From the NCBI GenBank assembly GCA_036604865.1, contig GCA_036604865.1_4856.1: DNA of 47,773 bases. One strand, written 5' to 3'. This document shows, piece after piece, positions 46,233 through 47,773 of the stretch. The translations under genes were made by a program, and so were the position numbers. This DNA is from a phage. The notes under the pieces are model-generated. The model was not told the DNA's origin. It saw only the letters and a list, made by a program, of their open reading frames with translations, and searched no databases. Position 1 is the first letter of the stretch. The number at the start of each line of letters is the position of its first letter.

Positions 46233-46949
46233 TCAGGATACGGTGCAAGCCGTGCTGATGATAATTTCAGGGTCAGTAGATGAATCCGTTACTGTGACGG
46301 TGTACACACCAGCGGTAGGACTTGTCAGCGTTGCACCAGATTCACCACCAACAACTACGCCATCTTTGCGCCACACGTAGGTGTAAGGAGAGACGCCTCC
46401 TTCAACAGCGACAGTTAACGGACTGCCGGTGCTGCCAGTTGGCGATAAGTCGGTAGTAAATTTTAGAGGCTCAAGGCTTTCGACGGTGACGCTGTCAGAA
46501 TCGTAAACCTTAAACTCAAGGCTGCCGGTTACGATGTCGTTCGTGCCACCTTCGTAGCTGATACTGGTGATGTTGCAATACGCAGTAACGATAGTGGCGC
46601 CAGTTACCTCACGCACCCACAATGAAGGCTGGCGACGTGCTTTAAGTTCAGTGGTGTAAATCTCAACCAGGCGATGGAAGCCAAATTCATCGCTCGGGTC
46701 ATTCTTGCGGATTTCAACCTCTGCGCTGATGGTCATATCAGAGCTGGTAACGAGAGTGGAAACAAAGCCGCCAGTGGTATCAGCTTCCGACGTAGTGGTC
46801 TGCGGCGAGTAGTCAACGCCTTTACTGGTGGTTGAGCCTAAATACTTCCAGTCTCCCGCCTCTGGAACTGCGTCACCACATCCCTCAGCAAGGAACAGTC
46901 GGGTCATGCGACCGACCAGAACACCTTTATCATTTGCACAAATAGCCAT
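46233..46949 (-). CDS. major tail protein with C-terminal Ig-like domain
   Basis: 238 aa with SD ggaga; C-terminal Thr/Val/Ser-rich beta-type segment TVAVEGGVSPYTYVWRKDG...TVTVTD resembles Big_2-type Ig domains on lambda V-like proteins. Confidence 0.65.
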   Translation of the reverse strand: MAICANDKGVLVGRMTRLFLAEGCGDAVPEAGDWKYLGSTTSKGVDYSPQTTTSEADTTGGFVSTLVTSSDMTISAEVEIRKNDPSDEFGFHRLVEIYTTELKARRQPSLWVREVTGATIVTAYCNITSISYEGGTNDIVTGSLEFKVYDSDSVTVESLEPLKFTTDLSPTGSTGSPLTVAVEGGVSPYTYVWRKDGVVVGGESGATLTSPTAGVYTVTVTDSSTDPEIIISTACTVS

Positions 46950-47000
46950 TTCGATCTCCGAATTGTGTTAGCTGCTAACGTGGTGATTATATCACAGGTG

Positions 47001-47029
47001 TTGACAGTGATTATTTTGTGGTGTAGATT
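47001..47029 (+). promoter_or_regulatory. sigma70-type promoter TTGACA-17-TAGATT driving the non-coding region and tRNA
   Basis: ttgaca at 47001-47006, 17-nt spacer ending gtggtg, tagatt at 47024-47029. Confidence 0.55.
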
Positions 47030-47641
47030 GTATTTCAGATAGTTTTCGTGAGCGACTTTGCGGACTTTTTAGAAACTGACCACAAAGATAAATGCAAACG
47101 ATGATGTTGTTCTGATGGCGGCGTAACAGCCTGTAAGTCAGCAAGGTCTTCCGATTCCTTGTAAACAAATTCGGCGCAGTGGCCCGCTGTGATTAATAAT
47201 GGGCACGCAACAAGCCCAGACGATATCTGAGTGGCTTAAAAAACAGATGGGAGCCGGTGGAATCCCGGCAAGTGGGTCTCATGTACCGAATGAACACATG
47301 ATGACGCGGGGAAAGAACCGTGACAGGAGGGAAGTAGACCCCGCGAACGCAACAGGTAAGAGCATTGGCGCATATAAGTGGAACTCGAACCCATTGCGCA
47401 GGCGACACAGACGTGTGTTTCAGTGCTCTTTCCGTTGTGGTAATGCGGCTATGCGCACGCGGCAAGGTAAAAACGCACTCCATTTGAATGTTGCCTGCTG
47501 GCTTTACCGACCAGCAATCTGGAGGCACCAGAGCCACAACACTTAACATCCAGCATTATCGCAATCATATGTAGGGGTATGTATGGGTTACGGGGCTGGA
47601 TGTTAAGAAAGCACGCTGGCAATGCTTAAACCAGCACTTAT

Positions 47642-47718
47642 GGACGCGTAGCTTAATTGGTTAAAGCAACCGACTCATAATCGGCTGATTGAAGGTTCAA
47701 ATCCGTCCGTGTCCACCA
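47642..47718 (+). tRNA. tRNA with anticodon CAU (Met, or Ile if lysidine-modified), CCA encoded
   Basis: Cloverleaf: 7-bp acceptor stem with one G-U, D arm gctt/aagc, anticodon loop cuCAUaa, T loop ttcaaat, one A-G mismatch in T stem, discriminator A plus CCA. Confidence 0.75.
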
Positions 47719-47773
47719 AATTAAAAGCCGCTTTATGCGGCTTTATTTATTTCACGACCCGCAAAAGCAACTC
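47647..47773. repeat. 127-bp direct repeat of window positions 1-127 (genome closure overlap or terminal redundancy)
   Basis: Exact identity read from the sequence: cgtagcttaattggttaaagc...cgcaaaagcaactc at both ends. Confidence 0.9.
47724..47753. terminator. rho-independent terminator after the tRNA (same element as 78-107)
   Basis: Identical sequence to 78-107 within the terminal repeat. Confidence 0.5.

Follow-up and report, generated by a model that had tools for sequence, protein, structure and literature searches.

In this study, we describe a promoter-driven non-coding locus at one end of a phage contig (GCA_036604865.1_4856.1, 47,773 nucleotides (nt), referred to as the window in its whole length). 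The first element of the locus, here called module 1, resembles the coding part of a transfer-messenger RNA (tmRNA) that lacks the tRNA-like domain (TLD). It carries a tmRNA-type tag frame and, upstream of it, a leader with complementarity to the tag template of the host tmRNA. Since its 5′ end is antisense to host tmRNA, module 1 probably docks on this ribosome-rescue RNA and reprograms it. The locus as a whole is a chain of separately conserved small RNA modules and not a single large RNA. That it is an array of non-coding RNA (ncRNA) cassettes headed by a phage tmRNA-derived coding piece without TLD, which reprograms the host tmRNA, is a reading for and against which we consider the chances to be even. 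The promoter and the parts of module 1 are listed below.

47001-47029, + strand: sigma-70-type promoter; -35 TTGACA at 47001-47006, 17-nt spacer, -10 TAGATT at 47024-47029; predicted transcription start at about 47036-47037
47036-47212, + strand: module 1, a tmRNA-like RNA without TLD, composed of antisense leader, linker, tag frame, stop-codon hairpin and two pseudoknots
47040-47074, + strand: 5′ leader with the blocks UAGUUUUCGU, GCGAC, UUUGCGG and CUUUUUA; antisense to host tmRNA nt 64-107
47075-47093, + strand: single-stranded linker and resume context (…ACCACAAAGAUAAAU), with A, U and A at -6, -5 and -4 as in host tmRNA
47094-47126, + strand: tag reading frame GCA AAC GAU GAU GUU GUU CUG AUG GCG GCG UAA (ANDDVVLMAA-stop)
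47112-47141, + strand: stop-codon hairpin, outer stem CUGA 47112-47115 / UCAG 47138-47141; analogous to tmRNA helix 5
47142-47174, + strand: pseudoknot a, stem 1 CAAGG 47142-47146 / CCUUG 47157-47161, stem 2 CCGA 47151-47154 / UCGG 47171-47174
47175-47204, + strand: pseudoknot b, stem 1 CGCAG 47175-47179 / CUGUG 47187-47191, stem 2 GCCC 47182-47185 / GGGC 47201-47204

Tag template and structure of module 1

The tag frame has neither a start codon nor a Shine-Dalgarno sequence. As in tmRNA, it opens directly at a resume codon, ends with a stop codon and encodes a degron of the hydrophobic-Ala-Ala type. Homologues of the module were gathered by regular expression and BLAST, and among them we found 37 distinct DNA versions of the frame encoding 21 peptides, all of which consist of ten codons plus stop and follow the consensus A-N-[DE]-[DEN]-x-[MFYV]-[LM]-x-[AV]-A. 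Tags of other phages include ANDEQFLAVA, ANDNVFLAVA, ANEEMYLAVA and, in P1, ANDDLMMVAA. The codons vary most at the third position, the final Ala codon occurs in all four synonymous forms, and the alternative frames across the tag are closed by stops (in 41/42 and 34/42 sequences, respectively). Judged by this pattern of substitutions, the tag frame is under purifying selection and behaves in evolution as translated DNA does. In an earlier reading of this DNA (the sequence-only reading), conservation of a reading frame with codon-like variation at third positions had been named as the sign that would speak against an RNA gene; such conservation is confined to these ten start-less codons and does not extend to a protein gene. 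The reading frame on E. coli tmRNA is set by U85 and A86. Module 1 has the corresponding frame-setting nucleotides at -5 and -4: GCAAACGA and A-U-A (-6 to -4) are invariant or nearly so in the alignment and are the same in host ssrA; the U-A-A columns upstream of the frame do not vary at all.

A permissive Rfam scan gave sub-threshold matches to tmRNA_permuted (27.3 bits, E = 0.0016) and beta_tmRNA (18.4 bits) over 47003-47175, and every related locus tested had a sub-threshold match to tmRNA_permuted, beta_tmRNA or tmRNA over the tag region. The gathering scores of the tmRNA models were not reached (27.3 versus 47 for RF04321, 18.4-23.8 versus 84 for RF01850 and 12.1 versus 47 for RF00023).

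The secondary structure was assessed on an alignment of 36 sequences. In the structure of module 1, 92.5% of the cells are paired, compared to 26-44% for slid controls, compensatory changes occur at 17 pairs, and none of 500 shuffles equalled the observed values. In the stop-codon hairpin, 17 sequences have G-C and 16 have A-U at pair 90:116 (alignment numbering). Compensatory changes were detected in three of the five pairs of stem 1 and in all four pairs of stem 2, both for pseudoknot a and for pseudoknot b. Two covarying H-type pseudoknots are located downstream of the template. A counterpart of tmRNA pseudoknot 1 (PK1) is missing; instead, the upstream segment is antisense to the 3′ strand of host PK1.

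ARAGORN detected no tmRNA in the window or in more than 60 related loci, apart from one spurious permuted call in a Felixounavirus locus (L011). In this call ANDNVFLAVA is read as the tag, with the resume consensus, and the tRNA domain is assembled from neighbouring ordinary tRNAs, and we rejected it. On the minus strand of the same locus (from about 2478-2518 onward), the 3′ half of a tRNA (T-arm, ACCCUUC-G-CCA) precedes the complementary 5′ half (GAAGGGU and D-arm) by 4 nt; the arrangement resembles a permuted or split tRNA, and these halves were used in the ARAGORN call. Rfam alignments of the module left the pairs of the tRNA domain unmatched. Because there is no TLD, a complete tmRNA, either standard or permuted, is ruled out. 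The gene layout of a two-piece tmRNA was not found either, as the promoter abuts the module and there is neither an acceptor strand nor an upstream acceptor piece. A helix that might close module 1 (5′ CAGUGCUCUUUCC with 3′ GGUAAGAGCAUUG) was considered as tmRNA P2 or as an acceptor stem with G3:U70. It was ruled out because covariation pairs each GGUAAG strand with the following CUUUCC strand, as in locus L039.

Complementarity of the leader to host tmRNA

The four blocks of the leader are, in order, the reverse complement of ACGAAAACUA, GUCGC, CCGCAAA and UAAAAAG of E. coli tmRNA. ACGAAAACUA comprises tag codons 3-6, GUCGC spans the resume codon, and CCGCAAA and UAAAAAG lie in the 3′ strand of PK1, so that the target (nt 64-107) covers the 3′ half of PK1, the resume region and tag codons 1-6. 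Local alignment of the reverse-complemented leader with ssrA is colinear over nt 67-106 with a score of 36, compared to 14.8 +/- 2.3 for shuffled sequences (maximum 27 in 2000; z about 9). RNAduplex predicts -46.6 kcal/mol for a 60-nt leader segment (47036-47095) with tmRNA nt 42-107, and -35.1 kcal/mol for the 38-nt leader versus -23.6 +/- 2.5 for dinucleotide shuffles. The predicted duplex is kept in nested cofolding, with a difference in free energy change (ddG) of -12.4 versus -3.1 +/- 2.1 with a shuffled leader.

This complementarity is a general property of the family. All 35 distinct leader variants are predicted to pair with the host target (23-41 bp, z = -3.8 to -8.2), some of them in another register, for example GCGGCUGUUUUUA against UAAAAAGCCGC. 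The antisense score of the 35 variants has a mean of 33.7 against the host and of 12.1, which is background level, against their own tag region. RNAalifold had proposed that the leader pairs with its own resume region (six invariant pairs); with the own-tag score at background, such pairing is not supported as the main role. No host-like copy of the target was found in 1.12 Mb of phage DNA that included the whole window genome. The leader thus shows an extended and conserved complementarity to tmRNA, above chance and above self-complementarity, as is expected for a trans-acting antisense RNA.

The sequence-only reading had pointed to a near-consensus promoter at 47001-47029, and it is indeed present, with 10/12 matches to the consensus. 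Both hexamers are preserved in two Klebsiella-phage relatives (L002 and L098) that are merely 70% identical, and Felixounaviruses have an independent promoter (TTGACA...TATAGT) at equal distance to AGUUUUCGU. In two lineages the promoter ends 7-10 nt ahead of UAGUUUUCGU, leaving the 5′ end exposed. In other lineages the first leader bases sit in the stem of an upstream long hairpin.

A model for reprogramming of host ribosome rescue

Trans-translation by tmRNA and SmpB is the chief ribosome-rescue pathway of bacteria and influences the growth of several phages. We propose that this class of phage RNA parasitises it: the leader would hybridise to the tmRNA template, the host tag would be silenced and the phage tag supplied in its place, resulting in a chimeric two-piece tmRNA. 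We hold the odds of this mechanism to be slightly short of even. After transcription (in other phages, after release from the upstream long hairpin), the leader would anneal to host tmRNA. In doing so it would open PK1 and hide the host resume codon, together with the first codons, inside the duplex, and the phage resume context and tag frame would be left single-stranded about 20 nt from the anchor point (host resume codon, about 25 nt). Host Ala-tmRNA with SmpB could then enter stalled ribosomes in the normal manner, and the ribosome would resume on the phage template, add A-ANDDVVLMAA and terminate. With TLD and SmpB provided by the host and the template by the phage, the complex would thus act as a natural two-piece tmRNA whose coding piece comes from the phage. 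Candidates for the pay-off are an altered fate of the tagged proteins, or a rescue system that survives damage or blocking of the host template.

Several points weigh against this model. The transcript, its ends, its binding to tmRNA and the use of the tag are all predictions from sequence, and the model presupposes that a complex of ribosome and SmpB can load a template that is tethered at this position by base pairing alone. The energetic significance of the duplex is moderate (z = -4.6), as the best of 1000 shuffles reached -34.2 compared to -35.1 observed. The host target is essentially invariant in the 31 Enterobacterales tmRNAs sampled, and for this reason a test for host-phage covariation is uninformative. 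The phage tags appear still to resemble ClpXP/SspB degrons, which puts the benefit of a tag swap in doubt. In addition, tRNA-shaped cassettes often adjoin the module, leaving room for an acceptor piece of the phage's own. Finally, disruption of PK1 impairs E. coli tmRNA, which is compatible with inhibition as much as with hijacking.

Indeed, the leader might act as an antisense inhibitor only, by blocking tmRNA or causing its destruction (for example by RNase III acting on the interrupted duplex of about 40 bp). In that case the tag would not be decoded, and its frame would be retained on other grounds, for instance because it contributes to RNA structure or is bound by a protein. Antisense pairing with tmRNA nt 64-107 would suit an inhibitor, since it would open PK1 and bury the resume codon, and tmRNA is known to have an influence on how several phages (lambda-immP22, Mu and P22) develop. 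However, the tag frame looks translated, given its synonymous third positions, fixed length of ten codons, invariable stop, AN[DE]…[AV]A pattern and closed other frames, and U(-5) and A(-4), the nucleotides relevant to SmpB, are invariant. Moreover, a template that is blocked without a substitute would be expected to trap ribosomes on tmRNA, which would harm the phage as well. We therefore regard pure inhibition as a rather unlikely explanation, though one to be taken seriously.

If the reprogramming model is true, the host rescue tag is rewritten by an RNA that P1, lambdoid, Felix O1, Vi1-like, N4-like and Chaseviridae phages have in common, and takeover of the host in this way would be new. 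Nature would have shown that a one-piece tmRNA can receive its template in trans, a design for programmable tagging would be at hand, and some of the 'tRNA-region' DNA that stands unannotated in about 1.5% of sequenced phages and in 12% of complete E. coli genomes would be accounted for. If module 1 is an inhibitor only, it would still be the first phage antisense RNA against tmRNA.

Distribution of module 1

Module 1 is 95-99% identical in close relatives and 70-87% identical in unrelated phage families. With 47030-47215 alone as the query, 737 phage records were matched, nearly all of them unannotated beneath the match. The module occurs in Kuttervirus, Felixounavirus, Gamaleyavirus, N4-like phages, P1, lambdoid prophages and Chaseviridae as well as in Klebsiella, Erwinia and Serratia phages, and it recurs by itself in phage families that are otherwise dissimilar to the phage studied here. 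It was also detected in 656 of 5,426 complete E. coli genomes, chiefly in P1-like plasmids and lambdoid prophages. In P1 (L005, NC_005856; 1393-1494 and 1501-1700) it directly follows the terminator of the annotated dicF-like region and lies upstream of trnA/trnT. This position is downstream of the C1-controlled Pban promoters, so the module may be expressed once C1 repression is lifted. In a lambdoid prophage of E. coli E2865 (L250, 3646-4717), it is located in a non-coding gap of about 1.07 kb that separates the gene for the Q antiterminator from that for the holin. In Stx phages this slot is occupied by tRNAs and by the stx genes.

The design recurs in Aeromonas phage phiA050 (tag ANDSEMRVAA) and in Pantoea phage SSEM1 (tag ANDNEMRAAA). 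Neither carries tRNA-like cassettes downstream, and a protein gene comes directly next. The module also occurs alone in Marshall. In Klebsiella phage RSU-F4K5 (L002, 2602-3572), a transposase/TnpB-like 'RNA-guided endonuclease' gene was observed about 500 nt past the ncRNA array.

Comparison with known systems

Module 1 shares several features with bacterial tmRNA (SsrA; RF00023, clan CL00001): its tag frame lacks a start codon and opens at the resume codon GCA, preceded by U(-5)/A(-4); the ten codons are of the type AND…AA (ANDENYALAA in the host); the stop codon lies in a hairpin, as in helix 5; and H-type pseudoknots follow downstream. It differs by the missing TLD (no acceptor stem with G3:U70, no T-arm and no CCA) and the missing PK1, by having two pseudoknots only, by its size (about 175 nt versus 363) and by its 5′ segment antisense to host tmRNA, and it scores far below the Rfam thresholds. 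In the two-piece tmRNAs of Alpha- and Betaproteobacteria and cyanobacteria (RF01849-51, RF04321) the template is likewise on a separate RNA, which in their case is held to the tRNA-like part by base pairing, and their models gave the best Rfam similarity of the module, located in the resume and tag region. However, both pieces of the known two-piece tmRNAs originate from one gene, and the coding piece supplies the 5′ acceptor strand. The predicted partner of module 1 is the intact one-piece tmRNA of the host; the intermolecular pairing is strong in prediction, but it falls on the template region and not on the acceptor stem.

Base-pairing RNAs of prophages that act on host RNAs are exemplified by the anti-sRNAs AgvB and AsxR and by DicF. 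Like these, module 1 is encoded by phages or prophages and is complementary over an extended stretch to a host RNA of high abundance. It is distinguished by its target, tmRNA, and by the decodable template that it also carries, and an Hfq-type module was not identified in it. Small stable RNAs are also encoded in the tRNA cluster of T4 (species 1 and 2 RNAs, rnaC/rnaD). Together with GOLLD and ROOL, these resemble module 1 in being ncRNAs among phage tRNA genes to which no role has been assigned so far; module 1 has no sequence or Rfam similarity to any of them and possesses an identifiable tmRNA-type template.

Surveys place phage tmRNAs solely in mycobacteriophages (Bxz1 group), in Bacillus phage G and in a small number of further phages, and they record a form with the TLD only in DS6A (PMC4131195, PMC11915505). 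In a 2014 survey of RefSeq viral genomes, ssrA was found in mycobacteriophages only (PMC4131195). These are tmRNA-derived phage genes as well, and DS6A is a precedent for a phage carrying half a tmRNA. Module 1 is the converse half, consisting of template and pseudoknots with an antisense arm, whereas the others are complete tmRNAs or the tRNA-like half. In the literature searched (the P1 genome paper was outside that scope), we found neither a description of a template-only, tmRNA-antisense phage RNA nor a phage factor described as acting directly on the tmRNA template. A paper on the close relative STGO-35-1 mentions tRNA-Met alone for the locus (PMC8954984). The hijack system, if true, would be of a new kind; the RNA itself is a variant of tmRNA.

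Downstream cassettes and modular inheritance of the locus

Module 1 is followed by five further elements and a terminator-like hairpin.

47213-47349, + strand: inserted module of 137 nt between direct repeats ACGCAACA(A/G)G; missing from Sa179lw, in which 47212 is contiguous with 47350
47349-47440, + strand: long 'punctuation' hairpin (CAACA)GGUAAG-AGCAUUG … CAGUGCU-CUUUCC(GUUGUG) with a branched interior of 53 nt
47434-47540, + strand: tRNA-shaped RNA ('cargo-2') closed by an 8-bp stem GUUGUGGU/GCCACAAC and composed of four arms, of which the last abuts the 3′ strand; z = -2.5
47543-47635, + strand: 12-bp hairpin (47543-47554 / 47595-47606) and small hairpin (47615-47635), upstream of the tRNA
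47642-47718, + strand: tRNA(CAU) with encoded CCA, an optional cassette; detected by ARAGORN and by Rfam with 63.4 bits (threshold 29)
47724-47752, + strand: intrinsic-terminator-like hairpin (47724-47744) and T-run, closing the locus

The 137-nt module contains a 5-bp stem with a 7-nt loop (GCCGG-UGGAAUC-CCGGC), and its fold is unexceptional (z = -1.0). Its first 59 nt are 86-97% identical to segments of Gamaleyavirus and Klebsiella phages. The CACAACAGG junctions, which are common to the cassettes of other phages, suggest that cassettes are exchanged by recombination at these sites.

The fold of the long hairpin has z = -3.6 on the + strand and z = -1.5 on the - strand. It belongs to a family, (CACAACA)GGUAAG-N7 … N7′-CUUUCC(GUUGUGG), that separates RNA cassettes in phage tRNA regions and is not in Rfam. 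Among 55 distinct members, compensatory changes were found at 15/19 pairs, a U·U mismatch is conserved, and the flanks, which were not used in the selection, pair as well. P1 has three such hairpins (at about 1672-1739, 2111-2185 and 2613-2679). The interiors are hypervariable (30-100 nt) and often end in a T-arm-like hairpin beside the 3′ strand. The long hairpins probably act as processing signals, either tRNA-like or of the RNase III type. Two candidates within these hairpins found no support. For a T-arm-like motif on the minus strand (47380-47392), neither a tRNA nor a tmRNA was called, and folding is better on the + strand. A hammerhead-like core in the hairpin interior of locus L019 (CUGACGAG-stem-CGAAAC, about 190-230 nt after the module start) gave no Rfam hammerhead match at E <= 1.

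The cargo-2 family comprises 30 distinct members closed by GUUGUGG/CCACAAC, none of which encodes CCA or has G3:U70. Some members, such as those in L087, L003 and L098, have canonical D and T arms but a large insert where the anticodon arm would be. The complementarity between 47545-47554 and 47595-47604, already noticed in the sequence-only reading, is part of the 12-bp stem listed above (z = -3.8), and 47543-47635 is 95-99% identical in the relatives having tRNA-Met. As that reading had also stated, the locus ends with a tRNA(CAU) and a terminator. The tRNA has an A·C mismatch in the anticodon stem and an A·G mismatch in the T stem. In relatives the gene is annotated as tRNA-Met or tRNA-Ile, and the candidates are an elongator tRNA-Met and a lysidine-dependent tRNA-Ile2. 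The covarying long hairpins and tRNA-shaped cassettes together point to an uncatalogued cassette system of phage small RNAs.

These cassettes raise the question of whether module 1 and a phage acceptor piece, either cargo-2 or a tRNA-like hairpin interior, form an autonomous two-piece tmRNA that does not need host tmRNA. Many arrays do have tRNA-shaped cassettes with long acceptor-like stems after the module, some with canonical D and T arms, several long-hairpin interiors contain a T-arm beside the 3′ strand, and the 3′ tail of the module (CACAAC) is complementary to the 5′ end of cargo-2 (GUUGUG). However, no partner is conserved: the hairpin interiors are too variable, cargo-2 has neither G3:U70 nor an encoded CCA, and neither ARAGORN nor Rfam detects a TLD. 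The module is, moreover, solitary in phiA050, SSEM1 and Marshall. An autonomous system would also leave unexplained why the leader matches host tmRNA rather than any phage sequence, and we consider it improbable.

The sequence-only reading had interpreted the region as one large structured ncRNA or as a processed leader for expression or maturation of the tRNA(CAU). This was right in part, as the region is non-coding in the ordinary sense, driven by a promoter, structured at the RNA level and read toward the tRNA. It is, however, neither a single RNA of about 600 nt nor a tRNA leader, because relatives keep, lose or exchange its pieces independently. With module boundaries defined by BLAST against four relatives, none of the four lacks 46950-47212, which is 95-98% identical in the three close relatives and about 70% identical in the Klebsiella phage, and 47350-47634 is shared partially among them. 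Sa179lw retains modules 1 and 4 and misses both the 137-nt segment and the tRNA. The tRNA slot itself is variable, being empty in Sa179lw and occupied by tRNA-Ser and tRNA-Arg instead of tRNA-Met in Bas81. Loss or replacement of the tRNA in close relatives that retain module 1, and the presence of module 1 without this tRNA in hundreds of other phages, speak against one large RNA, even though a single promoter and a single terminator bracket the whole stretch and several segments fold better than shuffles. Rfam, which had been suggested as a check, yielded the tRNA(CAU) and the sub-threshold tmRNA-model matches and no large-RNA family. At the gathering threshold or E <= 10 there was no match to a cobalamin riboswitch, group I intron, RNase P-type RNA or other family, nor to GOLLD, ROOL, group I introns or ribozymes of Rfam 15 in the window, and known Rfam families were likewise unmatched in 12 related loci. 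A single large RNA is therefore very unlikely.

Hardly more credible, and if anything slightly less so, is a non-functional relic, that is, a captured fragment of bacterial ssrA or a scar left by recombination among tRNA cassettes. The mosaic make-up of the region and the joining of its cassettes at repeated CACAACAGG junctions speak for such a relic, but similarity to enterobacterial ssrA in sense orientation is distant (8-nt identity), compensatory changes extend across unrelated phage families and the tag frame is under purifying selection. Finally, the possibility that one of the two open reading frames (ORFs) at 47193-47549 (115 amino acids on the + strand, 47199-47546; 118 on the - strand, 47193-47549) is a real gene can practically be dismissed: the ORFs do exist and some GenBank records call 'hypothetical proteins' over homologous stretches, but, in agreement with the earlier view that no convincing gene is present, neither matches Pfam or PHROG, both cross the 137-nt segment, whose length is not divisible by 3 and which Sa179lw lacks, as well as segments swapped in other relatives, and the DNA beneath them has RNA-level covariation and a fold whose G·U pairs favour the + strand.

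Genome setting

The window represents a circular genome of 47,646 bp, with an exact end repeat of 127 nt (1-127 = 47647-47773) that stems from assembly overlap. The tRNA is present twice in the window because of this overlap, and the copy at the start is the same gene as that at 47642-47718. A prophage att duplication, considered as the origin of the second copy, was ruled out, as the 127-nt identity of the ends is the overlap of a circular assembly. Relatives of the genome are Buchananvirus Sa179lw, Akiravirus, Shigella phage Sf11 and the BASEL phages Bas77-81. The locus lies on the + strand and is flanked by structural genes on the minus strand, with the major tail gene at 46233-46949. The region had also been described as more GC-rich than its surroundings. 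This is correct for 47200-47500 (0.54), but the difference is modest: the adjacent tail gene has 0.50-0.53, and the stretch 46900-47200 has 0.40-0.42.

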